44,620 nucleotides of DNA, from IMG/VR virus record IMGVR_UViG_3300048598_000594, positions 1-44,620 of that record; one strand, given 5' to 3'. A program made the position numbers and the translations under genes. The notes under the pieces are model-generated. The model saw only the letters and a program-made list of their open reading frames with translations, ran no database searches and was not told the DNA's origin. Source of the DNA: a virus. Lineage: Duplodnaviria > Caudoviricetes. The stretch's first letter is position 1. Each line of letters starts with the position of its first letter. Shown one piece after another: positions 2,613 through 40,695 of this stretch.

Positions 2613-2997
2613 GGCGAACCCCGCTAGCGCTCGACACGATCGCGACCCGGCTGCGACACTCGGCAATCCGAGCCAGGCGCAGCGTGCCGGCGGCGACCCT
2701 TTCAGGCTGGGCGCTGTAGATCTCGGCGCGCGCCAGAAATTCCAGCGGCCCGAACCTGTCGGTCAGGATCGCGCCGGCGGCGATGGCCCTGGCCTTGCAG
2801 CCGAGCGAGATGTCGAAATGCACCCAGGACGCATCGCGGTGCCTGCCGTGGCTCAGCGTCGGATGGCCCTGAATCCATTTCCGCGCGACGCCGATCCGGT
2901 CGGCCATGGCGAGCAGCTCAGCGAGCGTGTCGGCCCACATATGACACATGACCATGCGGCCGAACTGGTGGCGGACGTCGTCGACATAGACGCTCAT
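2605..2997 (-). CDS. DUF4031-like protein
   Basis: MSVYVDD..MCHMWADTLAEL..HFDI..KARAIAAGA pattern. Confidence 0.85.
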   Translation of the reverse strand: MSVYVDDVRHQFGRMVMCHMWADTLAELLAMADRIGVARKWIQGHPTLSHGRHRDASWVHFDISLGCKARAIAAGAILTDRFGPLEFLARAEIYSAQPERVAAGTLRLARIAECRSRVAIVSSASGVRHG

Positions 2998-4073
2998 TGG
3001 CGCACCTCCGGCATGGCATTGTGCGTGGCGCCGTCGAGCAGGCGGCCGGCGCGAGATTTGCCCACACGGCGCAAGACCGTCGCTGAGCAATGCGGGCCGT
3101 GTCCTGCATGCCAGACGCGCTCGCCGACCTGCCGTCTGTCCGAGGAGGATGTGACCGTGTACTTCTCAAGCGAGCCTGCATTGCCGGGAGCTGTGTATGC
3201 GGTGATCGCGCCCCACTCGCCCCATTGCTTGAAAAAGAACGCAGTGCCGGCGGCGGCGCACTGGTCGCGGATCTGGCGCGCCCAGTCGGGATGCATCGGC
3301 CGGGCGTCCGGCCCGCTTTCGCCGCCGACGATGATCCAGTCGAGTTTCGGGTCGGGGTTGTCGATGACGCCCGGCACGGCGCCCTCGCAATCGCTGTGCA
3401 GGCCTGTCAGCGCGTCGAGCGGCAGGAGGCTGTCGGCGCGCAGATAGGTGAAATCGATCGGCCCGAGCAGGGGCTCGGCGCTGACGAAGCGGATGGCTGC
3501 CGGCGTCGCGAGCAGATCGGGAATGCGCTCGTCGGCGCGGCGCTGATCCTCGGCCGAGACGCCTTTCCAGACGTTCGGGAGGGGCCACCGAAACACCCAC
3601 TTCGGCGAGAAGGGCGTGCCCTGGCTGGGGCGGATCCTCTCGGCCGCAAGCTCGATTTCATTGAGCCGAAGCGGGTTCGAGAGATACTCCCGCATCCGAT
3701 CCGCGCGCTTCGTCAGGACCTGAAAGGTGTGCTGCGGCGCCAGCGCCATCACGGCGAAGACTCGGTCGATCCATGCGTCGGGCACGTCCTCGTGGAAGAG
3801 GTCGCCCATCGAATTGACGAACCAGGTGGTCGGCTTGCGGCGGCGCAGGGGCTCCAGCAGCACATGCTCCGGCGCCAGCGCCATCCTGCCGGTCCAGACC
3901 GGGCCGGCCTTGCTCGCCCTGGTCAGTCCGGCATAGTGCGGGGCACCACCCATCCGCTCGATGCGAGCGGCCTGCCGCATGGCGTAGCAGTTGGTGCAGC
4001 CGGGCGAGACGACAGAGCAGCCGACCACGGGGTTCCAGCTGTGCTGCGTCCATTCGATGGCGGTCTCACCCAT
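2994..4073 (-). CDS. Phage Gp37/Gp68 (DUF5131) family protein
   Basis: IEWT..WNPVVGC..SPGCTNCYA, FVNSMGDLFH, QVLTKR, SAEPLLG, WIIVGGESG, FFFKQWG. Confidence 0.92.
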   Translation of the reverse strand: MGETAIEWTQHSWNPVVGCSVVSPGCTNCYAMRQAARIERMGGAPHYAGLTRASKAGPVWTGRMALAPEHVLLEPLRRRKPTTWFVNSMGDLFHEDVPDAWIDRVFAVMALAPQHTFQVLTKRADRMREYLSNPLRLNEIELAAERIRPSQGTPFSPKWVFRWPLPNVWKGVSAEDQRRADERIPDLLATPAAIRFVSAEPLLGPIDFTYLRADSLLPLDALTGLHSDCEGAVPGVIDNPDPKLDWIIVGGESGPDARPMHPDWARQIRDQCAAAGTAFFFKQWGEWGAITAYTAPGNAGSLEKYTVTSSSDRRQVGERVWHAGHGPHCSATVLRRVGKSRAGRLLDGATHNAMPEVRQ

Positions 4074-4287
4074 GGCGCACCTCCGGGTGACCGTTGAGCG
4101 CCGCGGCGCAGGCCTCGGCAACGTCGCGCGGCACGAACAGCGCGAGCGGGGCTTCGTGCCAGTGCAGGCAGTTCACGCCATCGGCGCCGTGGACAAACCA
4201 GTACGGCCAGTCATCCGTCCTGTCGGAAGCCGAGCGCGCGACATAGGGGCCGGGGCGCGTGGCATGGAAGGCGGCAGCTTCAGCCAT
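4066..4287 (-). CDS. Hypothetical protein (73 aa)
   Basis: ATG at 4287 with upstream GGAGG; overlaps neighbours. Confidence 0.6.
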   Translation of the reverse strand: MAEAAAFHATRPGPYVARSASDRTDDWPYWFVHGADGVNCLHWHEAPLALFVPRDVAEACAAALNGHPEVRHG

Positions 4288-4462
4288 TGGGCGGCACCTC
4301 CGTGACGTCGCCGTATTCGCGGGCGTGAGGATCGCGAGGGGGCTCGCGGCGGGCGCGGTCCAGCAGCCGGGCAAGGCCGTAGCCGATGCCGCAGGCGAGC
4401 AGGAGGAAGGCGCCAAGCGCCGGATCGAGCGGCGGAACGATGGCGTCGAGCGCGGCGATCAT
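4280..4462 (-). CDS. Small membrane protein
   Basis: One hydrophobic helix ALGAFLLLACGIGYGLA; ATGA coupling. Confidence 0.6.
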   Translation of the reverse strand: MIAALDAIVPPLDPALGAFLLLACGIGYGLARLLDRARREPPRDPHAREYGDVTEVPPNG

Positions 4463-4755
4463 GTCGCCCTCGCGCGCCGGAGCGAGGCTTCGAGATCGAA
4501 GCCGGGTGCGGGTTGCCGGCCGGCGGCGTCGGCCAGCTCGACATGCCCGACGATCAGGCCCTGGTGCTCGCCGGCGAGGCGGCGGCAGACCGGCGTGGCG
4601 GCCGGGCCGAAACCTTCCCAGCCGAGCGCCTGCCAGCCGTGGAATTCATGCCAGCGCAGCAGATAGAGCGTGCCGTGCCGGTCGGCGCCGAGAAAGGCGC
4701 GCGGCGAGCCGGCCGGCGGCTGGCCGGGGATGAGGTCGACATGAAGCGGCCTCAT
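4459..4755 (-). CDS. Hypothetical protein
   Basis: ATG at 4755 coupled to upstream stop; fills operon. Confidence 0.6.
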   Translation of the reverse strand: MRPLHVDLIPGQPPAGSPRAFLGADRHGTLYLLRWHEFHGWQALGWEGFGPAATPVCRRLAGEHQGLIVGHVELADAAGRQPAPGFDLEASLRRARAT

Positions 4756-6623: not shown

Positions 6624-6656
6624 AGGCGTGCTCCATCGGGTTGCGATGGCGCATCA

Positions 6657-6725
6657 TTGCCATATGGCAAATTCACCTGTCAATTGTTTTTGCCAAACGG
6701 CAAATCAGACTGTGCCGAACGGCAA
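6657..6725. promoter_or_regulatory. OL-type operators and leftward promoter
   Basis: TTGCCATATGGCAA 6657-6670, TTGCCAAACGGCAA 6690-6703, GTGCCGAACGGCAA 6712-6725; minus-strand TTGACA at 6678-6683. Confidence 0.8.
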
Positions 6726-6730
6726 TCTCG

Positions 6731-7384
6731 CTAGAGAGCTTCGCGCACCTTTCTTTGAATGCCGCGCCTCGCGTGATCCTTGATCCGGCGAACCTGGGCG
6801 GCGCGCACCACGGTGATAACCTCGCTGACCCATGTCACGCGCACGTCGCGCATCACCGGCGCGTTATGGCTCTCCAGATTGAAGAGCCCCCGCCGCGACC
6901 CTTCGATGACCCGCTTCAGGTAGCGCTTGCCCTCGTCGGTCGCGACGGCAGCCTCGAAGCCGATGACGCCCGAAACATCGCTGCCGTGCATCGAAACGAT
7001 GACAACGTCGCCATGGTCGTAGCGCGGCCACATGCTTTCGCCGTGGATCTCAAGCGCCAGCGCATCGGCCGGGAGCGCGAATGGCGGCTCGATCTCGAAA
7101 AGCGGATGCGCCAGGTCGAATTGCTCTGTCGACGTATCGATCGAGCCGCCGGCTCCGATCCTGCCTACTACGGGGACCGGGGCCGGCTCCTCGTCCTCGC
7201 CAATCAGCACGGCGACAGGCACGCCGAGGCGGTGCGAAATCTTGATGATCTCGTCGAGCCGCGGCTCGCGCTCGTCGCGCTCGATTCGTGAAACCTGCGA
7301 AACCGAGATGCCAACCGCCTCGGCCAGCTGCTCCTGGCTGACCTCGGCCTGCTCACGAAATTCTCTGATGCGTGTCCTTGCCAT
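6731..7384 (-). CDS. cI: CI-like repressor, XRE HTH plus S24 autopeptidase
   Basis: HTH SQEQLAEAVGISVSQVSRIERDEREP; VGRIGAG cleavage region; GESMWP Ser and LKRV Lys. Confidence 0.92.
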   Translation of the reverse strand: MARTRIREFREQAEVSQEQLAEAVGISVSQVSRIERDEREPRLDEIIKISHRLGVPVAVLIGEDEEPAPVPVVGRIGAGGSIDTSTEQFDLAHPLFEIEPPFALPADALALEIHGESMWPRYDHGDVVIVSMHGSDVSGVIGFEAAVATDEGKRYLKRVIEGSRRGLFNLESHNAPVMRDVRVTWVSEVITVVRAAQVRRIKDHARRGIQRKVREAL

Positions 7385-7470
7385 ATGGCGAGGATCACTG
7401 GCCGACGCGTCGGCAACCAGAGCCAATTGGCAAATCTGATTGACGTTAGATTTGCCATATGGCAAGTCAA
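7378..7470. promoter_or_regulatory. OR-type operators and divergent promoters
   Basis: TTGCCATATGGCGA 7378-7391, GAGCCAATTGGCAA 7420-7433, TTGCCATATGGCAA 7452-7465; TTGACG at 7440-7445. Confidence 0.8.
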
Positions 7471-7475
7471 CGAAC

Positions 7476-7784
7476 ATGAACCTCGCGTCCTACCTCGCAA
7501 AGAACAATCTCAAGCCGACGACGCTAGCCGCTCGCGCTGGCGTTCCTGCGTCGACGATCACGCGCATTCTCAGCGGCGCTCGCCGCCCCCTCTTCGACAC
7601 TGTCGTCAAGATCTCGGAGGCGACGGGCGGCGAGGTGGCGCTGAACGACTTCGTTCAGGTCGCCGATCCCGCCGAGGTCTCCTCTTCCGACCAGCCTGGA
7701 GCCGACCGCCCCGCTTCTAGCAGCGGCGATGGTCCTCGCCCGCATGGAAACGTTGCCGCTCATTCCACCGGAGGGCCGCGATGA
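7476..7784 (+). CDS. cro: Cro-like HTH regulator
   Basis: LAARAGVPASTITRILSGARRP..KISEATGGEV; divergent from cI. Confidence 0.85.
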   Translation: MNLASYLAKNNLKPTTLAARAGVPASTITRILSGARRPLFDTVVKISEATGGEVALNDFVQVADPAEVSSSDQPGADRPASSSGDGPRPHGNVAAHSTGGPR

Positions 7785-8254
7785 GCCGCGCGCGCGATGC
7801 CGATTTCTACCAGATCAAGGGCGGGTTCCGGGACCTGTTCGAGCGCTGCGGCAAGCTCGCCCGCTCCGGCCGCCTCGTCGGCCTGTCGACGGCGATGATG
7901 GGCAAGGTCAATGACCGCGAGGACGCCGCCTTCCTCTCGATCGACGCGACGCTGAAGCTCGAACGCGACTGCGGCCAGCCGATCGTCACCCGGATCATGG
8001 CCGAGCTGCTCGGCTACCGGCTGGAGCGGATCGAGCCGGCGCCGGTCGAGGCCGAGGGCTGCCCGCTGAGCGCCCATGCCGCCGTCATGCAGGAGGTCGG
8101 CGATGTCTGCCGCGCCTTCGCGCAGGGCCAGGCGGACGGCCGCTATTCGCGCGCCGACGCGATCAGCGTCAGCCGCGAGCTGGCGGAGCTCCGCCGCACG
8201 ATCGAGCGCTTCGAGCGTGTCAACGCCAAGACGATGGCCGGAGGGGCCGAGTGA
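7781..8254 (+). CDS. CII-like phage regulatory protein
   Basis: Position after cro; LERDCGQPIVTRIMA..AQGQADGRYS..RELAEL pattern. Confidence 0.65.
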   Translation: MSRARDADFYQIKGGFRDLFERCGKLARSGRLVGLSTAMMGKVNDREDAAFLSIDATLKLERDCGQPIVTRIMAELLGYRLERIEPAPVEAEGCPLSAHAAVMQEVGDVCRAFAQGQADGRYSRADAISVSRELAELRRTIERFERVNAKTMAGGAE

Positions 8255-9087
8255 TGCGCAGCATAGACGCCTCCGATATCGGCCGCATCGAGCGGCCCGC
8301 GAGCTTCGGGCCGGTTTCGCAGCTGCAATGGCTGCAAATCGCGCAGCTCTTCGTCGATCCGCGCTATCAGCGCGAGATCAGCGCCAAGGGCAGGCGCAAC
8401 GTCCGCGCCATCGCCGAGGCGTTCTCATGGGGCAAGTTTGCGCCGGTCGTCGTCGCGCCCCTGGAAGGTGGCGGCTATGCCATCGTCGACGGCCAGCACC
8501 GGACGACCGCGGCGGCGGCGCTCGGAATCGAGACCGTGCCTTGCCTGATCGTGCAGGCCGACCCCGGCGAGCAGGCCCGCGCCTTCCGCGCGATCAACGC
8601 ACAGGTGACGCGGATCAGCCGCGTCCAGTTGTTCAGCGCCGCCGTCGCCGCCGGTGAGCCCGATGCGCTCGACGTCGCGGCGATGTGCGCGGCGGCCGAT
8701 GTCAGCATCCGCCGCTCTCCGACGGCTATCAGCCTTATTAAGCCCGGTGAGACCACCTCCATCGGGGCGCTGTATCGGCTGGCCCGTGAGCCGCGCGCGC
8801 TGGCGCTCTGCCTGCTGCGCGGTATCCGCTCGCAGGCGATAGAGGGCACGAACCCGTTTCGCGAGCTGATCCTCGACGCGCTGCGGCTGGCGCTCGTCGA
8901 TCATCCCGCCTGGTGGGGCGACGAGGGGCGCTTCATCGCGGTGCTCGACGAGATCGACCTCGACGATGAGGTTCGCCGCGCCATGGCCCGCAAGGCCCGC
9001 GAGCGCGGGCTGAGCGCGGTCGACGCGCTCTATGCCCGCCTCGTCGACAAGCTCCAGCGCTCGCTGAAGTTCACTGGCCCTTCGTAA
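8251..9087 (+). CDS. ParB/Srx-fold domain protein
   Basis: VDPRYQR..FAPVVV..IVDGQHRT..ARAFRAIN. Confidence 0.8.
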   Translation: MMRSIDASDIGRIERPASFGPVSQLQWLQIAQLFVDPRYQREISAKGRRNVRAIAEAFSWGKFAPVVVAPLEGGGYAIVDGQHRTTAAAALGIETVPCLIVQADPGEQARAFRAINAQVTRISRVQLFSAAVAAGEPDALDVAAMCAAADVSIRRSPTAISLIKPGETTSIGALYRLAREPRALALCLLRGIRSQAIEGTNPFRELILDALRLALVDHPAWWGDEGRFIAVLDEIDLDDEVRRAMARKARERGLSAVDALYARLVDKLQRSLKFTGPS

Positions 9088-9184
9088 CCAGTCGCGTGGC
9101 GTTCGCCGGCCCCAGTTCCGCGTGCCGGCTCCCCCTTTTTTCCGCTCTTGCCGCCGGCTTTCACCCCTTTGGCCGGCGGCGAGG

Positions 9185-9228
9185 GGCGGCCCCGCCGTTC
9201 GAGGCCCGGCGGGGCCGCCTTCCCTTTC
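9185..9228 (+). terminator. Putative intrinsic terminator in early right operon
   Basis: 13-bp stem GGCGGCCCCGCCG / CGGCGGGGCCGCC followed by TTCCCTTTC. Confidence 0.45.
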
Positions 9229-9246
9229 AACCTCCGGAGGCAGGCA

Positions 9247-9561
9247 GTGGATGCACTCTCCCCAGCGACCGCGAGCGGCGCGCCCTGGCGCAACGCCTGC
9301 GTCCATTGCGGCATCGTGGCGCCGCTGATCCGCCTGCCCGTCTCCTCGCTCGCGCCGGGCGAATTGCTCTCCAGCGATGGCTGGATCGCGACCGCCACGA
9401 TGCTGGAGGCGGCGGGGGCGTCGCTGATCGAGCGCACGAGCGGCGAAGGCCGCTTCAACCAGGCGCAGGCCCGCAGCACCGCCGGGAAGCTGCGCGAGGC
9501 CGCCGCCGAGATCCGCGCCAACCTTGCCCTCGAGGAGGATTTCGCATGCCGGACGCGCTGA
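9247..9561 (+). CDS. Hypothetical protein (CxxC)
   Basis: GTG at 9247 with GGAGG upstream. Confidence 0.55.
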   Translation: MDALSPATASGAPWRNACVHCGIVAPLIRLPVSSLAPGELLSSDGWIATATMLEAAGASLIERTSGEGRFNQAQARSTAGKLREAAAEIRANLALEEDFACRTR

Positions 9562-10871
9562 CGGGCCGGGCCGTCCTGCTCAGCATCGCGGGCCTGCGGC
9601 GCGATGGCGGCACGCAGCCGCGCGCCATGCTCGACCCTTCCACCGTCGAGGCCTATGCCGACGCGCGGCGGGACGGCGCCAGCTTTCCGCCGGTCGTCGT
9701 GTTCTATGACGGCACGAACCATTGGCTCGCCGATGGCTTCCACCGCACGGCCGGGCATGAGGAGGCCGGCGAGGCCGAGATCGAGGCCGATATCCGGCCC
9801 GGCACGCAGCGCGACGCGATCCTGTTCGCCTGCGGTGCGAACGCGACCCACGGCCTGCGCCGCACGACCGGCGACAAGCGCCGCGCCGTCCTGCTGCTGC
9901 TCGGCGATCCCGAATGGCAGAGATGGAGCGACCGCGAGATCGCCCGGCATGCCCGCGTGTCCAACACCTTCGTCGGCACGCTGCGCGCCGCCACTGTCAA
10001 CGTTGACAGTGAGCGGACCTTCCAGACCCGGCACGGCACCGTTGCCAAGATGGACACCGCCGCCATCGGCAGGCGGGCCGCCGACATGGCGACGCTGCGC
10101 TCTGTCCCGATCGACGCCCTGCATCAGCTCGTCAGCGAGCAGCACCGGGCGAAGCAGGAGAGGAAGAAGGCCCGGCGGGACGAGCGCGAACTGCAGCTCG
10201 GCGAGAAGATAGCGGCCGGAAATGCGGCCCTGGCGGCGGCCGGTGCGGCGGGCAAGCGCTATGGCGTGATCTATGCCGATCCGGAATGGCGCTTCGAGCC
10301 CTGGTCACGCGAGACCGGCATGGACCGGGCGGCGGACAACCACTATCCGACCTCGCCGGTCGAGGCGATCATGGCCCGGCCGGTCAATGCCATCGCGGCC
10401 CATGACAGCGCCCTGTTCCTCTGGGCGACGCGGCCGATGCTGCCGCACGCGCTGCGCGTGGTCGAGGCCTGGGGCTTCGCCTACAAGTCCTGCACGGTCT
10501 GGGGCAAAAGCCGCGAAGGCGACGGGCGCGGCCCCGGCTACATCTTCACCGACGAAAGCGAGCTGCTGCTCTACGCCACGCGCGGCACCGTGCCCGCCCC
10601 TGCGCCGGGCACGCAATGGCCCTCGCTGATCATGGCGCCGGTCGGCGAGCACTCGGCCAAGCCGGCCCGGTTCCGCCAGCTGATCGAAAGCTATTTCCCG
10701 AGTCTCCCCAAGATCGAGCTCAACGCCCGCGAGGCGCATGAGGGCTGGGACTGCTGGGGCGCGGAAGCGCCGATCACGATCGGCGTCGACCTCTCCCTCA
10801 GCCCCGACCAGTACGCCGAAGTGGCCGTCCATGCCGACGGCTCGCTGACCTCCAGAGAAGGGCAGCGGTGA
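9546..10871 (+). CDS. ParB-fold/HTH - MT-A70 family N6-adenine methyltransferase fusion
   Basis: PPVVV..LADGFHR; HTH WSDREIARHARVSNTFV; MT-A70 motifs YADPEW, NHYPT, LFLWAT, WGFAYKS, ELLLYATRG, EHSAKP, IELNAR, GWDCWG. Confidence 0.88.
   Translation: MPDALTGRAVLLSIAGLRRDGGTQPRAMLDPSTVEAYADARRDGASFPPVVVFYDGTNHWLADGFHRTAGHEEAGEAEIEADIRPGTQRDAILFACGANATHGLRRTTGDKRRAVLLLLGDPEWQRWSDREIARHARVSNTFVGTLRAATVNVDSERTFQTRHGTVAKMDTAAIGRRAADMATLRSVPIDALHQLVSEQHRAKQERKKARRDERELQLGEKIAAGNAALAAAGAAGKRYGVIYADPEWRFEPWSRETGMDRAADNHYPTSPVEAIMARPVNAIAAHDSALFLWATRPMLPHALRVVEAWGFAYKSCTVWGKSREGDGRGPGYIFTDESELLLYATRGTVPAPAPGTQWPSLIMAPVGEHSAKPARFRQLIESYFPSLPKIELNAREAHEGWDCWGAEAPITIGVDLSLSPDQYAEVAVHADGSLTSREGQR
9992..10011. 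repeat. Perfect 20-bp palindrome CACTGTCAACGTTGACAGTG (candidate parS-like site)
   Basis: Direct inspection; AT-richer than flanks; immediately after the HTH-coding segment. Confidence 0.75.
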
Positions 10872-12025
10872 TGGGCGCAACGGTTTCCCCCGCAACAGAG
10901 AGGCCTGCAATGGACTTCGTCACGGTCGAGGGCCGCGCCCTCAAGCACGCCTTGCGCATCCTTCTCGAAGCCGTCGACCGGCGCCGAACGATCCCGATCC
11001 TCGGCTACGTCAAGCTGACGTTGACGAAGGACGGGCTCCGGCTGGAGGCGACCGATCTCGACGTCTGGGTTACGACGCTGATTGACGTGATCGACGGCGA
11101 CCGGGCCGGCGGTTGGAGTTTTTGCCTGCCGGCGCAGGCCCTGGCGGCGATGGCGCAAGTGGCGGGCGTGATGCCATTGCGCATCGAGCCCGGCGACAGG
11201 GCCACTATCACGCTCGGCGACGGCGAGGCGATCTACACCCTGCCGCCGCTGTCTGCGAGTGACTTTCCCGACGCGCCGCTGCCGCGCGGCGAGCTCATCG
11301 AGCGCTTTGGCAACGGCCGACTGGTCGCGCATCTCGACAAGGTGCGCGCCTTCATCTCGCGCGAGGAGGTGCGCTACTACCTCAACGGCGCGGCGTGGCA
11401 GCGCGGTGCCTTCGGCTCGCGCTTCGCAGCGACGGACGGACACCGGATGGCGGTATGCCGCTATGACCGCGAAGCGGTTGAACTGGCGGCAACGCGGATC
11501 ATCCCGCACAAGGCTGTCAGCCTGCTGGTGAAGCACTTCGCAGGACGTGACGTCGCTGCTTTCGCGGCGGCGGACGGCAGGCTCGGCATCGTCTTCGAGA
11601 GCGAGCGGCTGACCTTGGCCACGAAGCTGATCGACGGCACCTATCCCGATATCGACAAGATCATCGAGCCGTGCATCGAGCGCGCCAAGGCCTTCACGCT
11701 GGCGTTGAAACGGCCCGAAGCGCTCGCGGCCGTCGAGCGACTGCAGGTGTTCGGCCGCGACATCGGCCGCGCAATCCGCTTCGACAGGCACGATGACTGC
11801 CTCGTCATGGCGCGTAGCGGCGGCGACGAGGGCGCGCGTGTCCGGACCTCGTCGCCGTGGCCGGAGGGGCTCGGCGCCTTCGGCATTAATGCCGTGTACT
11901 TCGGCGACGTGATCGCGGCCTGCGCCAGCGACATCACCCTCGGCCTCGCCTCGCCCGGCGACCCGCTGCTGGTGTCCGACGGCGACGCTGAGATGACCCG
12001 CGTCCTCATGCCGATGCGGGTGTAG
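10868..12025 (+). CDS. dnaN: DNA polymerase III beta sliding clamp homolog (start may be 10910)
   Basis: IPILGYVKL, LEATDLD, EEVRYYLNG, AATDGHRM, KLIDGTYPD, C-terminal VLMPMRV. Confidence 0.9.
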   Translation: MMGATVSPATERPAMDFVTVEGRALKHALRILLEAVDRRRTIPILGYVKLTLTKDGLRLEATDLDVWVTTLIDVIDGDRAGGWSFCLPAQALAAMAQVAGVMPLRIEPGDRATITLGDGEAIYTLPPLSASDFPDAPLPRGELIERFGNGRLVAHLDKVRAFISREEVRYYLNGAAWQRGAFGSRFAATDGHRMAVCRYDREAVELAATRIIPHKAVSLLVKHFAGRDVAAFAAADGRLGIVFESERLTLATKLIDGTYPDIDKIIEPCIERAKAFTLALKRPEALAAVERLQVFGRDIGRAIRFDRHDDCLVMARSGGDEGARVRTSSPWPEGLGAFGINAVYFGDVIAACASDITLGLASPGDPLLVSDGDAEMTRVLMPMRV

Positions 12026-12027
12026 GG

Positions 12028-14232
12028 ATGCGTGAGCTGATCCTCGATTCCTTCGCCGGCGGCGGCGGGGCTTCCACCGGGATCGAGATGGCGCTCGGCC
12101 GCTCTCCCGATATCGCGGTGAACCATGACCGGATCGCGCTGGCGATGCACCGCGCGAACCATCCGGATACGCGGCACATGCTGCAGGACGTCGCGACAGT
12201 CGACGCGGTCGGGATGTGCCGGGGCCAGCCGATCGGCATGCTCTGGATGTCGCCGGACTGCACCGACCATTCCAAGGCCAAGGGCGCAGCGCCCCGGCGC
12301 GACGGCGAGACGACGACGCGCGGCATCGGCTGGGCAATCTATGGCTGGGTCAAGCGCCTGCCGAAATGGCAGCGCCCGCGCGTGATCTTCCTCGAAAACG
12401 TCGAGGAATACGTCGAGTGGGGGCCGCTGCTGGAAAGCGGCAAGCGCTGCCCGAAGCGCAAGGGCGAGACCTTCAAGGCCTTCGTCGAGGCGTGGCAGGC
12501 GCTCGGCTTCGTCGTCGAGTATCGCGAGCGCCGCGCCTGGTGGTCGGGCTCCGGCACGATCCGGAAGCGGTTGTACATGGTCATGCGTCGTGACGGCGAG
12601 CCGATCGTCTGGCCGGAGCCCGGCCACGGCAATCCGAACCTGCCGGCCGATGCGCTCCGGATCGACGCCGGCGAGCTCAAGCCCTGGGTCACGATCAGCG
12701 AATGCATCGACTGGTCGCGGCCGATCCCGTCGATCTTCGACAGCGCCGCCCAGATCAAGGCCAAGCTCGGCCTGACCGCCAAGCGCCCGCTGGCGCCGAA
12801 GACGATGGCGCGGGTGGCCAAGGGCGTCGAGCGCTACGTGCTGAAAGCGGCGAAACCGTTCGTCATCAAGGTCAATCACACCGGCCGCGACGAGGCGCGC
12901 GACCGCCGGCTCGACGTGCCCTTGACCGCTATGACCGGCAAGCGCGACGATGCGCTGGTCACGCCCTTCGTGGCCGGGCTGGCGCATGGCGACAGCGGCG
13001 GGCGGCGCGAGTATGCCGCGACCGAGCCGCTGACGACCGTCCATGCCGGCGGCGGCAACCACGCTCTCGTGACGCCCTTCGTGACGAAGTTCCGGACCGG
13101 GGCGGTCGGCCATCGCGCTGACGAGCCGGTCCACACGATCACGGCGCATTCCAGCGAAACGCATGGCGGCGGCGCGGCGCCGCTCGGCATCGTCACGCCC
13201 TTCGTCGCCTACGCCCAGCAGGGCGGCGGGCTGCGGCCGGCCGAGGCGCCGGCGCAGACCTTCACGGCGTCGCCCAAGGATCAGAACACCGTCGTCGCGC
13301 CCTACCTCGTGCCGCGCTATGGCGAGAGACCCGGCCAGGAGCCGCGAACCGCGGCGGCAGATCAGCCCGGCCCGACGATCGTGCCCGACGGGAACGAAGG
13401 CAGCATGGCCGTCGTTCACCTGACGCGCCAGTTCGGCAACTCGGTCGGCTCGGGCGCGGACGAGCCTGTCGGCACGATCACGGCGGGCGGCGATGGCAAA
13501 GCTGGCGTCGTCGCGGCCTTCCTCGCGCAGCATAATGACGGTCCGCGGCCGGGCGCGCCGGCGCACCCTGCCGACGAGCCTGTTTCGACGATCTCGACAC
13601 GCGGCGCTCAGCAGCAGCTCGTCGCGGCCTCCATGGTCACGCTGCGCGGCAGCGACAGGCGCGGCGCCAGCGCCGAAGAGCCGGGCCGCACAGAATCGGC
13701 TGGCGGCAATCACAATGGCGTCGTCGCCCTGCCGCTGATGACTGTCTATTACGGTTCGGAGACGGACGGCGCGGCGGCCAATGCCCCGGGCCGCACCGAG
13801 ACGACGCGCGACCGCTTCGGGCTGGTGAGCGCGACCGCCATGGCACCGCCTTTCGGGCCGGAGCACGAGGCGCGCGCCCGCGAGGTCGCCGCGTTCCTGC
13901 GCGAGCACGGATGCTGGGACGAGCGCGAGTTCGTCATCGTCGATCTCGACGGCGCGACCTTCGTCCTCGTCGACATCTGCATGCGGATGCTGACGCCGCG
14001 CGAGCGCTACACCGCGAACGGCTTCCCGGCGAACTACATCATCGACCACGGCATCGACGCCGACGGCTCGATCGTCCCGTTCACGCTGGAGCAGCAGGGG
14101 CACATGTGCGGCAACGCCGTCTGCCCGACCGAGGCGCGCGACCTCGTCGCCGCGAACTACCAGCCGCGCCTGCGCAAGCGCCCTGGCAAGCCGGCGGCGG
14201 AACTGCCCTTCTTCATGGAGGCGGCGGAGTGA
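12028..14232 (+). CDS. DNA cytosine-C5 methyltransferase with repeat-expanded variable region
   Basis: FAGGGG motif I, SPDC motif IV, LENVEE motif VI, TIRKRL VIII, RMLTPRE IX, GNAV X. Confidence 0.92.
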   Translation: MRELILDSFAGGGGASTGIEMALGRSPDIAVNHDRIALAMHRANHPDTRHMLQDVATVDAVGMCRGQPIGMLWMSPDCTDHSKAKGAAPRRDGETTTRGIGWAIYGWVKRLPKWQRPRVIFLENVEEYVEWGPLLESGKRCPKRKGETFKAFVEAWQALGFVVEYRERRAWWSGSGTIRKRLYMVMRRDGEPIVWPEPGHGNPNLPADALRIDAGELKPWVTISECIDWSRPIPSIFDSAAQIKAKLGLTAKRPLAPKTMARVAKGVERYVLKAAKPFVIKVNHTGRDEARDRRLDVPLTAMTGKRDDALVTPFVAGLAHGDSGGRREYAATEPLTTVHAGGGNHALVTPFVTKFRTGAVGHRADEPVHTITAHSSETHGGGAAPLGIVTPFVAYAQQGGGLRPAEAPAQTFTASPKDQNTVVAPYLVPRYGERPGQEPRTAAADQPGPTIVPDGNEGSMAVVHLTRQFGNSVGSGADEPVGTITAGGDGKAGVVAAFLAQHNDGPRPGAPAHPADEPVSTISTRGAQQQLVAASMVTLRGSDRRGASAEEPGRTESAGGNHNGVVALPLMTVYYGSETDGAAANAPGRTETTRDRFGLVSATAMAPPFGPEHEARAREVAAFLREHGCWDEREFVIVDLDGATFVLVDICMRMLTPRERYTANGFPANYIIDHGIDADGSIVPFTLEQQGHMCGNAVCPTEARDLVAANYQPRLRKRPGKPAAELPFFMEAAE

Positions 14233-15104
14233 GCGAACCCTCGCGTCCCCTGCTGCGCTGGCATGGCGGCAAATGGCTGCTGGCGCCCTGGATCATCGGC
14301 CATTTCCCGCCGCACCGGGTCTATGTCGAGCCGTTCGGCGGCGCGGCCAGCGTGCTGCTGCGCAAGCCGCGCGCCTATGCCGAAGTCTATAACGATCTCG
14401 ATGCCGAGCTGGTGAACCTCTTCCGTGTGCTTCGCTCGAAGGAGGCCTCCCGGCTCACCGAACAGCTGCGCATGACGCCCTTCGCACGCGACGAGTTCCT
14501 CGCCGCCTATGAGCCGTGCGCCGAGCCTGTCGAGCAGGCCCGACGGATGATCATTCGCAGTTATATGGGCTTCGGCAACGCTGGCGCGCTCGGCCGGTCG
14601 ACCGGCTTCCGGGCCGATAGCAACAAGAGCGGCACGACGCCGGCCCATGCCTGGGCGAACTTCCCGGATGCCGTGCCTGCGATCATCTCGCGGCTCTCCG
14701 GCGTCGTGATCGAGAACCGTGACGCGCTCGTGGTGATGGCCGCGCACGACGGGCCCGACACCCTGCATTACGTCGACCCGCCCTATGTCCACCAGACCCG
14801 CTCGGGCGGGAACCCCTACTGCGCGAAGCACAAGTATCGTCATGAACTCGACGACGCGGCCCATGCCGCGCTGCTCGAGGCGCTGCGCGGGCTTGCCGGC
14901 AGCGTCGCGCTCTCGGGCTATCCCTGCCCGCTCTATGACGAAGCCCTCGCCGGATGGCGGCGCGTCGAGCGGGCAGCGCTGGCGGACGGCGCCCGCGAGC
15001 GCACCGAAGTGCTCTGGATCAATCCTGCGGCTGCGAACGCCCTGGAGCGGCAGCGCAACCGCACGCAGACGCCGCTGCTGGAGCACCTGGAGGCGGCAGA
15101 ATGA
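14229..15104 (+). CDS. Dam/D12-class N6-adenine DNA methyltransferase
   Basis: GTGA coupling; RWHGGKW, EPFGGAASV, YNDLD, YVDPPY, LSGY. Confidence 0.92.
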   Translation: MSEPSRPLLRWHGGKWLLAPWIIGHFPPHRVYVEPFGGAASVLLRKPRAYAEVYNDLDAELVNLFRVLRSKEASRLTEQLRMTPFARDEFLAAYEPCAEPVEQARRMIIRSYMGFGNAGALGRSTGFRADSNKSGTTPAHAWANFPDAVPAIISRLSGVVIENRDALVVMAAHDGPDTLHYVDPPYVHQTRSGGNPYCAKHKYRHELDDAAHAALLEALRGLAGSVALSGYPCPLYDEALAGWRRVERAALADGARERTEVLWINPAAANALERQRNRTQTPLLEHLEAAE

Positions 15105-15337
15105 GTGCCGAACGCATCTCAATCGGCCAGCAGCTGGAGGCGGTGCGCTACGCCGCCGAGCGGCAGGCCATCCTCGGCCGGGGCGGCTCGGTCCGCGACC
15201 AGCGCCCGGAATCCGTCCGCGACTATGAGCTGCAGCGCCTGCTGGCGGCTGTCGAGACGCTGACCTGGCTCAAGAACAATGCCGAGGCCGTGAAGGCCGC
15301 GCACCGCGCCCTGGCGGCGGCAGGAGGTGGATCGTGA
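15101..15337 (+). CDS. Hypothetical protein
   Basis: ATGA/GTGA overlaps at both ends. Confidence 0.7.
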   Translation: MSAERISIGQQLEAVRYAAERQAILGRGGSVRDQRPESVRDYELQRLLAAVETLTWLKNNAEAVKAAHRALAAAGGGS

Positions 15338-16533
15338 GCGCCGCCCTTCTCGGTCTCGCATGGCAAGCCAAGGTCGGCGACAGCAAGACGCGCAAGCTCG
15401 TGCTGATGAAGCTTGTCGACTGCTGCGACGACGATGGCTCCAACATCTATCCGGCGCTGGCGACCGTGGCCGACCATGTCGGCTGCTCGACGCAACAGGT
15501 CCGGCGCACGCTGAAGGACTTCTGCGGCGTCGGCCTGCTACGCAAGGTTCGCGACGGTGGGCGCGGCGCCGGCTCGACCGCCCGCTACGAGCTCGACATT
15601 GACATGCTGGCCCGCCTGCGCCGTGCCGAGATGTGGCCGGCGCTTGAGGCCGCTGCCGCGCGCGACCCGTTGCCCGATTCCGACGATGACGAGGCGTCAG
15701 GCCATGCGCCGAACGCATCTTCGGAGGCGAGCGACGCCCCCGCCGCAGCGTCAAATAAGGGTGACATGGTGTCACCCTTACATGGTGTAAGCCTTACACC
15801 AGCGATCGATAAGGGTGACATCTGGAGTCACCCAACCCCTCATAGACCCCTTAGTTCTGAGAGAGAGAGCGCGGGCGCTGGCGCAGGGGCGCCGGCTGGA
15901 TCGGGCGATGCGCCCGATGCAGGGCATGCAGCCGACGCAGAGCCTCCGGCGACACTGGCCGCGTTCCTCGCCAGCTATCCGCACGCCTCGGCGGACGATC
16001 AGGTCACCCTCGCCTCGGCCTGGGAGGGAGTGCCCTTCGCCGAGCGCCGGGCTGCGATCGATGGGATTCCCGGCTTCGTTGCCGAACGGAAGGCGGCGGG
16101 CTTCGACAAGCGCCTTTCCGGGCCGAAATACCTCTCCGGCCGGAACTGGCGCCATGTGCCGAAGCTGGCCGCCGAGCGGGCCGCGGCGCAGGCCGCCGGG
16201 GCGTCCGGCATGATCAGCGGCTATTCCCGCGATTGGTGGCTGCTGCTGCTCGACCGGATCTTCGCCGGCAAGTCTCCGGGCTTCTGGATGCAGCAGGCCG
16301 AGGCGCGCAAGCTGCTCTCGGCTTCCGGCGCCGACCTCGCCGCGGCGGCCAAGCGCATCGGCGAGTTGCACGCCTATCTCTGCGACGGGCCGGAGATCGA
16401 GGCTTGGCGGCCCTGGCTCGCCGCCAGAGGCGCCCGCATCCCGGCCTTCCGCGGCGACTTCCGCGTGTTCCTGCCGAAGCCGCTGCCGCCGGGCGGGCGA
16501 GCCGACCAAGGTGATGATGATGTGGCATTCTGA
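15334..16533 (+). CDS. Replication initiator (N-terminal HTH, lambda O-like organisation)
   Basis: KLVLMKLVDCCDDDG..YPALATVADHVGCSTQQVRR; internal inverted repeats. Confidence 0.8.
   Translation: MSAALLGLAWQAKVGDSKTRKLVLMKLVDCCDDDGSNIYPALATVADHVGCSTQQVRRTLKDFCGVGLLRKVRDGGRGAGSTARYELDIDMLARLRRAEMWPALEAAAARDPLPDSDDDEASGHAPNASSEASDAPAAASNKGDMVSPLHGVSLTPAIDKGDIWSHPTPHRPLSSERESAGAGAGAPAGSGDAPDAGHAADAEPPATLAAFLASYPHASADDQVTLASAWEGVPFAERRAAIDGIPGFVAERKAAGFDKRLSGPKYLSGRNWRHVPKLAAERAAAQAAGASGMISGYSRDWWLLLLDRIFAGKSPGFWMQQAEARKLLSASGADLAAAAKRIGELHAYLCDGPEIEAWRPWLAARGARIPAFRGDFRVFLPKPLPPGGRADQGDDDVAF
15756..15833. promoter_or_regulatory. Putative phage replication origin repeats
   Basis: TAAGGGTGACA-TGG-TGTCACCCTTA 15756-15780; TGGTGTAAG-C-CTTACACCA 15783-15801; TAAGGGTGACA..GTCACCC 15810-15833; local AT enrichment. 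Confidence 0.7.
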
Positions 16534-16548
16534 CGGGAGCGCAGGCTG

Positions 16549-17220
16549 ATGGGGCATCAGAAGAAGCGTCCGCGCCCGGATTTCCATGGTCATGGTCGCG
16601 CGCTGTTGGAAACGAAGGTTCCGGCTCCCGCCGATCTCGACCTCGGCGCCGACTGGTACCTCGTCTACACCGCGCCTCGCATGGAAGCGAAGGTGGCGAA
16701 GGGGCTGGCCGATGCCGGCTGCAAGGTCTTCCTGCCCGCCATCCATCGGGTGATCACACAGCGCTATCGCAGGCTCGAGCACGACGTCGCGACCTTCCCG
16801 CGCTACCTTTTCACCGCCGGCGTGCCCTTCCGCTGGCGCGGGCGCGACTTCGTCGGGGAGGATGGTGTCTCGGTGGTCACGGTCGACGGCCGGCCCGTGG
16901 TCGACATCCGCGATATCGACGGTGTGATCGATGTCGTAGGCACGCCGCGCGGCTGGCTCAAGGTTCCCGGCAAAGCCGTCGGCGCGGTCGCAGCGTTCCA
17001 GAACGACTATGTCGCGCCCTGCTCCAACGTGCTCGCGCCGCCGAAGCCGCGTCGCCTGCTCGCTGCGGGTGAGCGCGTCAAGGTGATCGACGGGCCGTTT
17101 GCCTCCTTCCAGGCGACAGTCGTCGACATGATCGGGCTCGAGCGGGCCGAGGTGCTGGTCGACATATTCGGACGGTCGACGCCGCTCGATATCGACCTGC
17201 GGCAGCTCGACGCCGCCTAG
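16549..17220 (+). CDS. NusG-family (NGN plus KOW) antiterminator paralog
   Basis: WYLVYTAPRME..FPRYLF..; GERVKVIDGPFASFQATV..VDIFGRST. Confidence 0.9.
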   Translation: MGHQKKRPRPDFHGHGRALLETKVPAPADLDLGADWYLVYTAPRMEAKVAKGLADAGCKVFLPAIHRVITQRYRRLEHDVATFPRYLFTAGVPFRWRGRDFVGEDGVSVVTVDGRPVVDIRDIDGVIDVVGTPRGWLKVPGKAVGAVAAFQNDYVAPCSNVLAPPKPRRLLAAGERVKVIDGPFASFQATVVDMIGLERAEVLVDIFGRSTPLDIDLRQLDAA

Positions 17221-17251
17221 TGGAAAGCGGTTTCCACTTTCAACTTGCGCC

Positions 17252-17422
17252 GCGCCCATTGACTCCGGCAGTGCGAATCGGAATCCATGGGCGCACGGTT
17301 ATTCCGGTAGTGTGATCGCCGCCCTGCGGAGTTGTATCTCACGGAACCCGCGTCAGCCTCACCAGCTACCAAGTGCGAAGCTATGTCCGCCCGCCGCCGC
17401 AAGGTCGGCGGGTTTCGTGTTT
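17252..17422 (+). promoter_or_regulatory. Late promoter, structured leader and terminator
   Basis: TTGACT 17259-17264; GGTAG/CTACC stem 17306-17370; CCCGCCG..GCAA..CGGCGGG + TTTCGTGTTT 17390-17422. Confidence 0.6.
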
Positions 17423-36540: not shown

Positions 36541-38028
36541 ATGAACTGGTCAACCTCGCTGCGCGGGGCCGCTTCGCTGCGCCTTGCCGCCACCGTGACG
36601 CTCGGCGCCGATCGCGGCCAGCCGCTCGGCACCGTCCTGCAGCTGCGCCGCGGCGGCGAGCCTGTCATCGGGCTCGGCTTCCCGCAGGTGATGAACCATT
36701 TCACCCGCGCCAATCCGCGCATGCTCGCCGGCTTCGCCCGCTCCGATGCGCCGCTGACACACACCGCGACGGTGCTCGGCTCGGCGACGAAGGTGCGCTA
36801 TCGCACCGCGGTCTTCGACGGCGACCTGACCGACCTTTCGAACCTCGAGCGCTTCGATGAGGCCAGCGGCGAATGGCTGCCGCTGCCGGCCGACTGGGCC
36901 GGGCTCTCGCTCCGCCCGGGCGAGCATCTCTATTCGATCCAGCGGATCGGCCCGGCCGTGCTCGCGGTTTCGACCGAGCGGGTGATCTGCGACGGCGCCA
37001 CCATCTACGAGATGAACACGCTCCCTTGGGGCGCCTGCGCCTTCTGGCACGATGGCTGGTTGCATGTCTGCTGCCCCTTCTATGGCGAGATCAGGTCCTT
37101 CGTCTGGTCGCCGGGATCTGGGCCGGTCGGCGTGCCGGCGCTGACCTACGCGCTCGGGCCGCACTATGGCCGCGCCTTCGGCGTGCTCGGCGGCAAGGTT
37201 CTGATGGCGACGCATGCCGGCGGCCTGCACCGTTTCGACGGCGTGGCATGGGATGCGGTGCAGTGGTCATTCCCCGGCGAGTTCTATGCCCTCGCGCAGG
37301 TCGGCGAGACGCTGCGCCTCGGCGATTACGGCACCGGCGACCAATGGCTCTACGATCCAGCCCTGGCGCCGGTCCTGCAGAAGCTCGGCGGCAACCCGCC
37401 GGCCGAGCCCGGCGCGCAGAAAGCCTCCGGCCGCGAGATCCAGAGCTTCGCCCTGCATGGCGGTGCGCTTTATCACGGCGTCTACCCCTGGGGCGCGGTG
37501 CACTGGCGCGACCTCTTGAACTGGACCTGGGGCCATCAGCGGCTGTTCTCCGGCCCGCCGATCGATGCGGCGCTCGGCGCCTTCACGGCCGATCTGACGG
37601 CGCAGGGCGTCGACCCCGGCGTCTTCCCCGGCATCTCGCGCTGGTGCCAGCGTATCACGGCGCTGACGGCGTGGCGCGGCGGCATCGTCGCCTCCTGCAC
37701 CAACATGTCGGGCGATCTTGTGCTGCCTACGCCGGCTCAGACCGCGATGCTCGGCAGCCTGCATGGCGAATATGGCCGCACCATCCTGCTGCAGGGGCCG
37801 CCCGCCTGCGCCGGTGAGATCGCATGGCGCGACGTGCCGACCGAGCTCGCGCTCGAGGTCGACGCCGGCCATGTGCGCTTGCTTCAGGACGGCGTGCCGA
37901 TCAGTGAGGGGCCGGGCCTCGCTCTGGCGGAGCTCGCCGCCGGCGATCTGACGCTCGATGTCGGGAAAGGTCAGTTCGGCCAGTTCGGCGGCGCGGCGAT
38001 GCGCGGCTACTCAGTCAGCTCGGAATGA
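36541..38028 (+). CDS. Hypothetical 495-aa protein, probable beta-propeller
   Basis: AGGAG RBS; repeated short beta-blade-like motifs (FDGVAW, HGGALYHGVYPWG). Confidence 0.75.
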   Translation: MNWSTSLRGAASLRLAATVTLGADRGQPLGTVLQLRRGGEPVIGLGFPQVMNHFTRANPRMLAGFARSDAPLTHTATVLGSATKVRYRTAVFDGDLTDLSNLERFDEASGEWLPLPADWAGLSLRPGEHLYSIQRIGPAVLAVSTERVICDGATIYEMNTLPWGACAFWHDGWLHVCCPFYGEIRSFVWSPGSGPVGVPALTYALGPHYGRAFGVLGGKVLMATHAGGLHRFDGVAWDAVQWSFPGEFYALAQVGETLRLGDYGTGDQWLYDPALAPVLQKLGGNPPAEPGAQKASGREIQSFALHGGALYHGVYPWGAVHWRDLLNWTWGHQRLFSGPPIDAALGAFTADLTAQGVDPGVFPGISRWCQRITALTAWRGGIVASCTNMSGDLVLPTPAQTAMLGSLHGEYGRTILLQGPPACAGEIAWRDVPTELALEVDAGHVRLLQDGVPISEGPGLALAELAAGDLTLDVGKGQFGQFGGAAMRGYSVSSE

Positions 38029-38236
38029 GATCGAGGGCGGCGAGGAAGGCATATCCTCCGCCGACCAGCATCGCGCGGCGCAGCCAGCGCCAGAGCCAGC
38101 TCGCCCGCAGCTTCGCCAGCAAGAGCGGCAGGGTATCCTTGATCTCGAGCAGGGCGCCCCACAGCAGGCTCGCAGCGATGATCGCCAGCTCGAGCTTGCT
38201 CGCAGGCATCCGGCGAAAGGCGAACCGCGTTGACAT
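38015..38236 (-). CDS. 73-aa hydrophobic/basic protein downstream of structured RNA
   Basis: GAGGGG RBS 6 nt before ATG; two hydrophobic segments. Confidence 0.6.
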   Translation of the reverse strand: MSTRFAFRRMPASKLELAIIAASLLWGALLEIKDTLPLLLAKLRASWLWRWLRRAMLVGGGYAFLAALDLIPS

Positions 38237-38251
38237 ACCCGTCCCCTCGAC

Positions 38252-38362
38252 TGGTGCCGGGGAGTTAGGAACTCGTCCGAAGAAGAGCGCCGTCGCCTTT
38301 AGGGGTTGCCCCCATTGGACATGACCGCGCCTTTCGGCACGGGACGACGGCCTCCCCGACAT
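38252..38362 (-). ncRNA. tRNA-like structured RNA, C4/CI-type antisense RNA candidate
   Basis: Closing stem TGTCGGGGAG/CTCCCCGGCA + 3' CCA; inner stem GCCGTCGTC/GGCGACGGC; GAAA and GCAA tetraloop hairpins; complementary to upstream 38401-38418. Confidence 0.7.
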
Positions 38363-38515
38363 AGAGACGGGAAGTGCAGTTCTACGGTCGCACTAGACCG
38401 CTTCAGACGGGGTTCCTACGCCCCAGGCCACCTACGGCGACCCGCGCGGACCTTAACCCACGCCTCGCTCCTTTGCCAGCCGCCGCCGGCGGCGCTTTCA
38501 GATCCGGAGAATGCC

Positions 38516-39367
38516 ATGACTGCGCAGAATTTCGCGCCGGCGCTGGCGCGCGCCCTCGTCCATGAAGGCGGCTACGCCAATCATCCGAAAGACCCGGGTG
38601 GCGCGACGATGAAGGGCGTGACGCAGCGCGTCTACGACGCCTATCGCGTTCGTCGCGGCGAGCCGCGCCGTTCTGTCCGGCTGATCGACGATGCCGAGCT
38701 GAAGGCGATCTACCGCCGCCAGTATTGGGACGTGGTGAAGGCCGACAGCCTGCCGGCCGGCGTCGACTACGCGGTCTTCGACGGGGCGGTGAACTCCGGC
38801 CCGGCGCAGGCGGTGAAGTGGCTGCAGCGCGCGCTCGGTTCGATCAAGGTCGATGGCGTCGTCGGCGAGGCCACGCTCGCCGCGGTCGAGGCCTATCCTG
38901 ATCACGACCGGCTGATCGCGCTGATGCTCGCCCGGCGTCTCGCCTTCCTCGAGGCGCTGCGGACCTGGTCGACCTTCGGGCGCGGCTGGAGCGCACGCGT
39001 CGCGCAGGTCCGGCAGATCGGCCAGGCCTGGGCGAGCGGCTCGGTCGGCCCGGTGCCGGCCTTCGCCGCCGGCGGCAATGCCAAGGCGACCATCGACCAG
39101 GCGAAGGCGCTGCCGGCCAAGGGCGGCGCCGACGCGACCACGGGCGCCGGCATCGGCTCAACCGGGCTCGGCGGCGTGCTCGAGCAGGCGCGCCAGCAGC
39201 TCGACCCGCTGGCCGCGAGCTCGGAGCTGATCGGCCACGTCGTCGCGGCGCTGGTGGTGACCGGCGTGCTGCTGACCGTCGGCGGTGTCGCCTATCGCTG
39301 GCTGGCCGCCCGCCGCGCCCGCTCGCTGGCCGATGCGCTCGACCTGCCGCAGGGCGTCGCGGCATGA
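38516..39367 (+). CDS. Endolysin, GH108 family with PG-binding domain and C-terminal TM segment
   Basis: HEGGYANHPKDPGGATMKGVT, FDGAVNSG, LQRALG..DGVVG..TL, FGRGW. Confidence 0.93.
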   Translation: MTAQNFAPALARALVHEGGYANHPKDPGGATMKGVTQRVYDAYRVRRGEPRRSVRLIDDAELKAIYRRQYWDVVKADSLPAGVDYAVFDGAVNSGPAQAVKWLQRALGSIKVDGVVGEATLAAVEAYPDHDRLIALMLARRLAFLEALRTWSTFGRGWSARVAQVRQIGQAWASGSVGPVPAFAAGGNAKATIDQAKALPAKGGADATTGAGIGSTGLGGVLEQARQQLDPLAASSELIGHVVAALVVTGVLLTVGGVAYRWLAARRARSLADALDLPQGVAA

Positions 39368-40564: not shown

Positions 40565-40612
40565 CCGGCGGTCCGCCATCGCCTCGGCGATCGCCTGGCC
40601 CTCGCAAGGGGC

Positions 40613-40680
40613 TGCCCTCCTTGGGCGTTTCCTCCCTCAACTGGCCCCGTCAGCTTCGGCTGGCGGGGCCTTTTTCGTTT
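40613..40680 (+). ncRNA. suhB/MmgR (alpha-r8)-like small RNA with intrinsic terminator
   Basis: GCCCTCCTTGGGCGTTTCCTCCCT..ACT then GGCCCCGTCAGC-TTCG-GCTGGCGGGGCC-TTTTT. Confidence 0.8.
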
Positions 40681-40695
40681 AGGGGCAGATCGGCG

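Follow-up and report, generated by a model that had tools for sequence, protein, structure and literature searches.

What is a structured RNA doing on the minus strand of a prophage, pointing against the late genes and standing in front of a 73-aa orphan frame? The DNA analysed here (44,620 nucleotides, referred to as the window) is a provirus record with a serine recombinase, a repressor, methylases, a NusG-like protein, HK97-type head and tail genes and a GH108 endolysin, and the RNA cassette has the endolysin gene on one side and, on the other, a 495-aa gene from the end of the tail region. A first-pass annotation had described this cassette as a tRNA-like antisense RNA that pairs with its own leader, and had proposed that it gates a toxin, abortive-infection or exclusion function, or that it acts in trans on other phages.

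The RNA cassette and its site in the prophage

All the motifs described earlier were located on the minus strand (Table 1), along with two that had been overlooked, an anti-RBS segment and a probable pseudoknot. Three descriptions stood only in part. Complementarity to the leader exists, but instead of one run it is made of box a (7 bp) and box b (8 bp, with one G-U). A GAAA hairpin of the GNRA type is present, but as an insertion of 19 nt confined to the window and its 96% identical twin (L106). The term tRNA-like stands for a C4-type junction: ARAGORN and Rfam found no tRNA cloverleaf (D, anticodon and T arms) in the window, and a CCA near the 3' end is present in only 57 of 89 relatives.

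The consensus promoter scan returned nothing at 38450..38479. The TA---T hexamer of the probable promoter is equally spaced from the leader in each of the five window-type copies, and transcription would start at about 38445-38443. The anti-RBS segment and the RBS region change together in four relatives (L106, L107, L103 and L132), and pseudoknot-type folds with 10 bp or more were predicted behind box b for 49 of 89 relatives, compared with 46 of 445 shuffles. The core is found as a single copy within the window. Two additional frames were discarded: one of 115 aa running from 38362 through the RNA, which has no SD and is not conserved, and one on the plus strand (38025-38324) that by inspection mirrors the cargo ORF.

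Table 1. Features of the cassette and its flanking genes (positions in the window).
Feature	Positions	Strand	Remarks
495-aa gene, end of tail region	36541..38028	+	Flanks cassette; 14-nt overlap with the stop of the cargo ORF
73-aa cargo ORF	38015..38236	-	One or two hydrophobic stretches
Ribosome-binding site	38243..38248	-	3' boundary of the portable cassette
C4/sRNA-Xcc1-like core RNA	38252..38361	-	Closing stem, inner stem with conserved internal loop, b' hairpin, a' strand, ACCA
ACCA	38255-38252	-	3' end of core
Closing stem	38361-38352 with 38264-38255	-	Fold
b' and a' strand	b' 38282-38275; a' 38272-38266	-	Antisense segment spans 38282-38266
19-nt GAAA-hairpin insertion within core	38325..38343	-	Absent from 22/23 aligned cores; common to window and L106
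Anti-RBS segment	38363..38371	-	Predicted partner: RBS (38247-38238) or 5' arm of closing stem
Hairpin, probable pseudoknot	38373..38401	-	Fold; loop can pair with 38377-38373 (predicted pseudoknot)
Target box b, variable address	38401..38408	-	Covaries with b' loop
Leader hairpin 2 with target box a	38409..38424	-	Fold; box a TAGGAAC, 38418-38412
Leader hairpin 1 (first hairpin of c4-a1b1/IsrK-type leader)	38425..38443	-	Fold; sequence-changed version in relatives
Probable sigma70-type promoter CTGGCA-18-TAAGGT	38450..38479	-	CTGGCA 38479-38474, TAAGGT 38455-38450
GH108 endolysin	38516..39367	+	Flanks cassette, head to head

The proposal that the cassette had been inserted was borne out. Seven close endolysin relatives (L011-L017, 75-84% identity) carry other DNA and no cassette at the same site in front of the endolysin, so that the site is a variable cargo slot. 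The five window-type copies all stand head to head with an endolysin gene, the endolysin families being different. In two contigs (L008/L009) found via the upstream gene, the RNA region is 96% identical, but the endolysin is another one and the ORF is an unlike hydrophobic one of 28 aa. Contigs from four public sequencing runs show 95-99% identity within 38234-38425 and then diverge directly after the RBS; the divergence point of these contigs and of L008/L009 falls at 38239-38234. Four runs that carry the label RNA-Seq were flagged as probably DNA and say nothing on expression. The first ORFs of the window-type copies are mutually unlike, with 73 aa in the window, 28 in L106, 72 in L107, 36 in L103 and 46 in L132 (from Bosea eneae), and hydrophobic peptides make up three of the five.

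The 73-aa ORF has a coding-like GC3 of 0.85, similar to its neighbours, and a peak 19-residue hydropathy of 1.6. Pfam, PHROGs and homologue searches returned only the ORF itself and no family, and the matches of an atlas search were all under 0.8. Weak partial matches to proteins of 855 and 403 aa, in several stretches each, were treated as low-complexity. As had been noted, no antirepressor stands behind the window cassette, its place being taken by this orphan. The toxin or abortive-infection role suggested for it found no support, because the ORF is an exchangeable cargo without homologue, which differs among the closest relatives and in some of them is not hydrophobic.

Other features of the prophage can be mentioned here. 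A suhB/mmgR small RNA (RF00519, 55.5 bits) is encoded at 40607-40683 on the plus strand, directly after the lysis region. The early region (9096-15104, plus strand) contains three DNA methyltransferases of the MT-A70, C5 and D12 classes and a DNA polymerase III beta-clamp homologue. The NusG-like gene (16549-17220, plus strand) precedes the late operon, and in four related phages (L011, L017, L107 and L132) a hairpin with a T-run is found before the endolysin; together, these suggest antitermination.

Kinship with C4 and sRNA-Xcc1 RNAs

C4 and CI RNAs are processed from their own precursor by RNase P. The c4 RNAs have been reviewed (PMC12197685) and the corresponding Rfam motifs defined (PMC2864571); in the accessible parts of the literature, IsrK is given two folds and P4 CI is paired with seqA and seqC (PMC4825925), and IsrK is equated with seqA and C4 with CI (PMC3632133).

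The core of the window RNA folds with -60.6 kcal/mol (z = -4.9 relative to 300 dinucleotide shuffles). When 23 cores were aligned, 99.2% of the cells were paired and 9 of the 21 pairs had changes on both sides; in three of five measures, covariation (with the structure drawn from the same 23 sequences) was higher than in any of the 500 shuffles, and it was far above slid controls. The stems thus covary across relatives, a point on which the first-pass annotation had made its proposal depend. A check that it had suggested, a comparison with the Rfam C4 models, was negative: neither at the gathering cut-off nor up to an E value of 10 did the window give a C4 match or anything relevant. The window likewise gave no match to the sRNA-Xcc1 model (RF02221), and none of five genomes or records scored above its cut-off of 53 bits; relatives range from 25 to 41.5 bits (L103 41.5, L107 32). 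Even so, L103, L160 and L165 align to the sRNA-Xcc1 model over its full length, internal-loop arm included, the leader of L125 resembles Rfam c4-a1b1 with an E value of 0.0046 that is below the cut-off, and the a and a' boxes are identical in L100, a classical C4 locus that matches the Rfam models of C4, isrK and c4-a1b1.

Searches for further members gave a variable yield. Comparison of the cassette with phage and plasmid records by blastn returned chance matches only, and the early searches for relatives also consisted mostly of chance matches, from which 4 of 8, 6 of 7 and 7 of 19 were kept by eye (the last set includes L100). A pattern made of the leader hairpin and a' alone located 27 genome loci, mostly in Sphingomonadales. 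With a core-only covariance model, matches were obtained in 30 of 151 genomes of one family sample (the family of G001), a single genome having up to 9 copies, and one core-model element was found to match 384 plasmid records, among which 275 had been typed as conjugative. A sphingomonad subtype (L116, L118-L121, L126, L127, L131, L136 and L138) has about 170 nt of extra structured leader between the core and a lipoprotein or DUF805 cargo; two of these loci are near a tRNA gene.

The likeness to C4 of P1/P7 (RF01695), to c4-a1b1 (RF03163) and to P4 CI/seqA begins in the leader, with two hairpins carrying a and b boxes. With C4 and P4 CI the window RNA also shares the core (closing stem, first arm, b' hairpin and single-stranded a') and the variation of the address, and the covarying upstream a1b1 target in the own leader of C4 has its counterpart in the window family. 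Unlike C4, the window has a first arm formed by an 8-bp stem with a conserved internal loop, there is no downstream a2b2/seqC target, and control of the RBS is predicted to go through an anti-RBS helix. Nor was a terminator found after the leader of the window cassette; icd/kil and antirepressor genes are absent, and the cargo is usually not an antirepressor. The sRNA-Xcc1 RNAs have the same fold over the full model and are found on mobile DNA upstream of a gene (symE); in the consulted portions of the reports on them (PMC12189769; bioRxiv 2025.06.18.660453) they are treated as trans-acting sRNAs under HrpG/HrpX control, and not, as proposed here for the window family, as leader-addressed switches.

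The RNA cassette is real and forms part of an alphaproteobacterial branch of the C4/sRNA-Xcc1 RNAs. The kinship with C4 and CI RNAs put forward earlier is supported; we infer that the RNA works like C4 and descends from the C4 group, although it fails several C4 membership tests. No description of such a branch, or of a C4-like traM leader, was found in the literature covered, which leaves aside subscription papers and bioRxiv supplements.

Addresses and the predicted switch at the ribosome-binding site

A search of the window for the a+b target pattern gave two matches, the leader and its own complement, and none in 100 shuffles, in support of the antisense pairing with the own leader. No downstream target was found within the window, in agreement with the first-pass annotation. 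Across relatives, box b and the b' loop gave -14.1 kcal/mol in cognate and -7.4 kcal/mol in non-cognate combinations (0 of 10000 permutations). The upstream a+b target was present in 69 of 87 relatives, the remaining 18 failing the strict test, and a downstream target in 4 of 87, against a background from random pairings of 11/1480 and 13/1480, respectively; the classical C4 locus L100, used as control, was positive both upstream and downstream. In elements retrieved with the core-only model, which contains no leader, the upstream target was found in 49 of 66. Leader-antisense covariation alone leaves cis and trans pairing indistinguishable.

The multi-copy genomes bear on this point. In six genomes with 4-9 copies, the own leader was matched by 31 of 37 RNAs and the leader of another copy in 1 of 210 combinations, a cross-match rate close to that between genomes (11/1480). 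Comparison of paralogues shows differences at 241 of 385 positions (63%) for the five central bases of b', while in the same set a' differs at 35%, fourfold-silent sites of the cargo at 771 of 2550 (30%) and the stems at 1-5%. Divergence was counted in 33 of the 37 copies, four being left out for differences in register or cargo; the paralogue pairs are not independent, and gene conversion of the cargo could lower the silent-site figure. That the address loop changes faster than silent sites points to selection for private addresses and to recognition between molecules, because slower change than at silent sites would be expected of a helix that serves in cis alone.

The direction of a possible switch was examined by equilibrium folding, which takes into account neither pseudoknots nor co-transcriptional kinetics. 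In the lowest-energy fold predicted for the precursor, the leader is paired with a'b' and the anti-RBS segment with the 5' arm of the closing stem. When the leader was forced to be single-stranded, as a stand-in for binding in trans, the predicted probability of the closing stem in the window rose from 0.12 to 1.0, the anti-RBS segment then pairing with the RBS, and opening the start region was predicted to cost 15.5 instead of 10.0 kcal/mol. The predicted cost increased by 2.3-4.3 kcal/mol in the four closest relatives and from 3.4 to 8.5 kcal/mol in pTiC58; for 53 relatives (model matches whose leader could be located and whose start lay no more than 100 nt away), the mean went from 7.7 to 10.5 kcal/mol, with changes larger than 1 kcal/mol upwards in 38 and downwards in 3. 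Blocking the first 20 nt as a control had no effect in these 53 (mean 7.4 kcal/mol). The behaviour is not uniform: L103 keeps the cloverleaf without blocking, L132 does not form it when blocked, and the mean unpaired probability of the SD does not follow the opening cost (0.25 vs 0.34 in the window, 0.17 vs 0.28 in L106), the RBS being fully open in neither predicted state. Overall, the model predicts that occupancy of the leader closes the RBS, so that folding prediction supports the gating of the ORF by the RNA that had been suggested.

The explanation that we favour, to which we give about an even chance, is that the cassette is a portable promoter-leader-RNA unit of the C4/sRNA-Xcc1 type with a single upstream target, acting as a self-silencing switch that is on at entry and controls the cargo. 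In a fresh transcript, cis pairing between a'b' and the leader would keep the closing stem from forming, the anti-RBS segment would be drawn away and the cargo would be translated. Once accumulated, the RNA, either as a processed core or as a stable leader transcript in the cloverleaf fold, may bind new leaders in trans, allowing the cloverleaf to form and the RBS to be paired, with the cargo turned off. A burst of cargo would be produced when the phage or plasmid enters a cell devoid of RNA with the same address, and the established lysogen would be largely silent, while the fast-changing a/b address could keep co-resident copies from silencing each other. Our guess for the 73-aa peptide is a short-lived membrane function at entry, such as exclusion.

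Cargo genes, the traM leader and competing explanations

Besides membrane peptides, the genes found behind the element include P22_AR_N antirepressors (2 of 22 cargos scanned), TraM, stand-alone PF10074 (DUF2285), HTH_3 and DUF805 proteins. Seven elements (L153, L155, L156, L157, L160, L166 and L211) are located before stand-alone PF10074 genes in ICE-like loci; these genes converge on a longer PF10074 gene, mostly near repA, and we take the stand-alone PF10074 proteins beside repA to be QseM-like. Three members (L147, L164 and L195) precede P22_AR_N or Rha-like genes, L147 lying among Mu-type Gam and GemA genes; L195 has a downstream second target and forms a bridge to classical C4. In the six multi-copy genomes (G129, G046, G103, G044, G086 and G124; L145-L150, L165-L169, L176-L209), the 4-9 chromosomal copies per genome are situated among housekeeping genes, the cargos are a paralogous N-terminal membrane, HTH_3 or small helical protein, and nearly all addresses differ.

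The element was also found in the leader of traM. Among six annotated plasmid regions it stands directly before traM in three and before traM with an IS between them in one; in the other two it precedes an HTH gene and a hypothetical gene adjoining virB11. Family members occupy the traM leaders of Ti and related plasmids (L212, L214, L215 and L217), and in pTiC58 the 234-nt traM leader (149937-150170; L218:14938-15171) is filled by the element, family model R1 scoring 54 bits at 150025-150110 with complementary leader boxes. This homologue has CTGGCA-18-TATAAA 6 nt before the published start site, mapped at 149937 by Lee et al. 2013 (PMC3738593), whose transcript pTi_149938F covers 149938-150154. 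According to that work, pTi_149938F is the most abundant of 47 Ti ncRNA candidates in plasmid-carrying C58 (Table S3-D), with 2545-4465 RPKM without TEX and 6638-17365 with TEX, and the traM leader is called at least 10-fold deeper than adjacent regions (Table S3-D). The RNA is 217 nt long, enriched by TEX and ends 17 nt before traM, and is not a short processed core. As far as these published data extend, they confirm that the homologue is transcribed from the predicted position and that the signal drops before the ORF in resident cells. It belongs to the same family as the window RNA but has no CCA and has an extra hairpin before the RBS. The traM leader of Ti and related plasmids is thus a member of this RNA family, published, in the portions consulted, only as an abundant 5' UTR, with no structure or mechanism given (PMC3738593). 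Two papers on TraM (PMC5924552 and PMC3907764) make no mention of a leader RNA in their accessible text, and in the latter the regulation of TraM is said to be still in need of critical examination.

The favoured switch has to be weighed against other explanations. A somewhat unlikely one dispenses with any RNA in trans: the a/b pairing would be the long helix of a conformational switch or attenuator, flipped by a protein, a ligand or folding kinetics. Leader-antisense covariation is equally expected in that case, and the RNA of pTiC58 is reported to accumulate as the whole primary leader, ending shortly before traM; yet b' changes about twice as fast as silent sites while remaining complementary, and the other stems hardly change. 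The opposite polarity, with a silent cis-paired form and a short leader RNA, own or from an incoming element, turning the cargo on, seems very unlikely to us. It has an experimental precedent in the isrK-orf45-anrP locus of Gifsy-1, in which, in the sections available, the cis-paired form is inactive and leader RNA activates in trans (PMC4825925), and with which the window family shares two alternative folds, one of them leader-paired, a leader of the same c4-a1b1/IsrK type and probably also an RNA of the locus acting in trans. However, the IsrK (RF01394) leader is terminated and activates a frame starting inside the RNA, while the window has no terminator, and conservation of an orf45-like internal frame was not seen: an SD precedes the ATG at the 5' end of the core in 1 of 44 cases, and the frame from this ATG runs through the RNA without a stop in 24 of 44. 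In the folding predictions it is the cis-paired form that favours an open RBS, and the predicted polarity of the window cassette is accordingly the reverse of that of IsrK.

The remaining two explanations differ in purpose or in target. In an RNA-gated addiction or abortive-infection module, which we consider unlikely, the RNA would serve as antitoxin and the 73-aa peptide would kill upon loss or titration of the RNA; the switch would be that of our preferred explanation, put to a different purpose. Hydrophobic peptides among the window-type cargos, the multi-copy chromosomal modules with distinct addresses and the position of sRNA-Xcc1 before symE in Xanthomonas cassettes, as described in the text consulted (bioRxiv 2025.06.18.660453), are in its favour. 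The window ORF, taken as a putative small toxic protein of a type I toxin-antitoxin system, has a hydrophobic stretch but no homologue. Against such a module, near-identical cassettes carry unrelated cargos (73, 28, 46, 72 and 36 aa) with no Pfam or PHROGs family, many cargos of the family are regulators, and such a module, being on at entry, would poison the very infection that brings it in, except with a mild peptide. An RNA aimed at other phages or plasmids with the same address, the ORF being incidental, is barely credible. Phages that differ in their lysis genes carry cassettes with 96% identity, which makes cross-talk between them possible, and the idea has been raised for lambdoid IsrK-C4 copies in the accessible part of PMC3632133. 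But the a+b address was found in three host genomes only at the cassette itself, with no second target, which goes against the earlier suggestion of action in trans on other elements. A viral scan for foreign targets returned about 1400 stretches, the level expected by chance, and carries no information on this point.

Returning to the self-silencing switch, a broader and more tentative proposal, to which we give a little less than an even chance, is that a privately addressed RNA, a C4 derivative with one target, is common to phages, plasmids and ICEs of Alphaproteobacteria and senses newcomers. It would provide a burst of expression on arrival in a naive cell, followed by silencing, to any gene plugged behind it, would time TraM on Ti, At and Sym plasmids, and would have addresses under diversifying selection, as immunity groups do.

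A few phages are known to have C4 and CI RNAs as immunity factors. The alphaproteobacterial branch, unannotated and with no Rfam model reaching the cut-off, is common and is plugged before many unrelated genes of mobile elements, including traM of Agrobacterium Ti plasmids. The interest of the locus comes mostly from the RNA family and the link to traM, the cargo peptide of the window being its least informative part. Orthogonal RNA addresses would be useful as regulatory parts for Alphaproteobacteria. The membership of the traM leader makes a textbook circuit newly testable and, if the proposal is true, a previously unrecognised RNA layer would be added to quorum-controlled conjugation.
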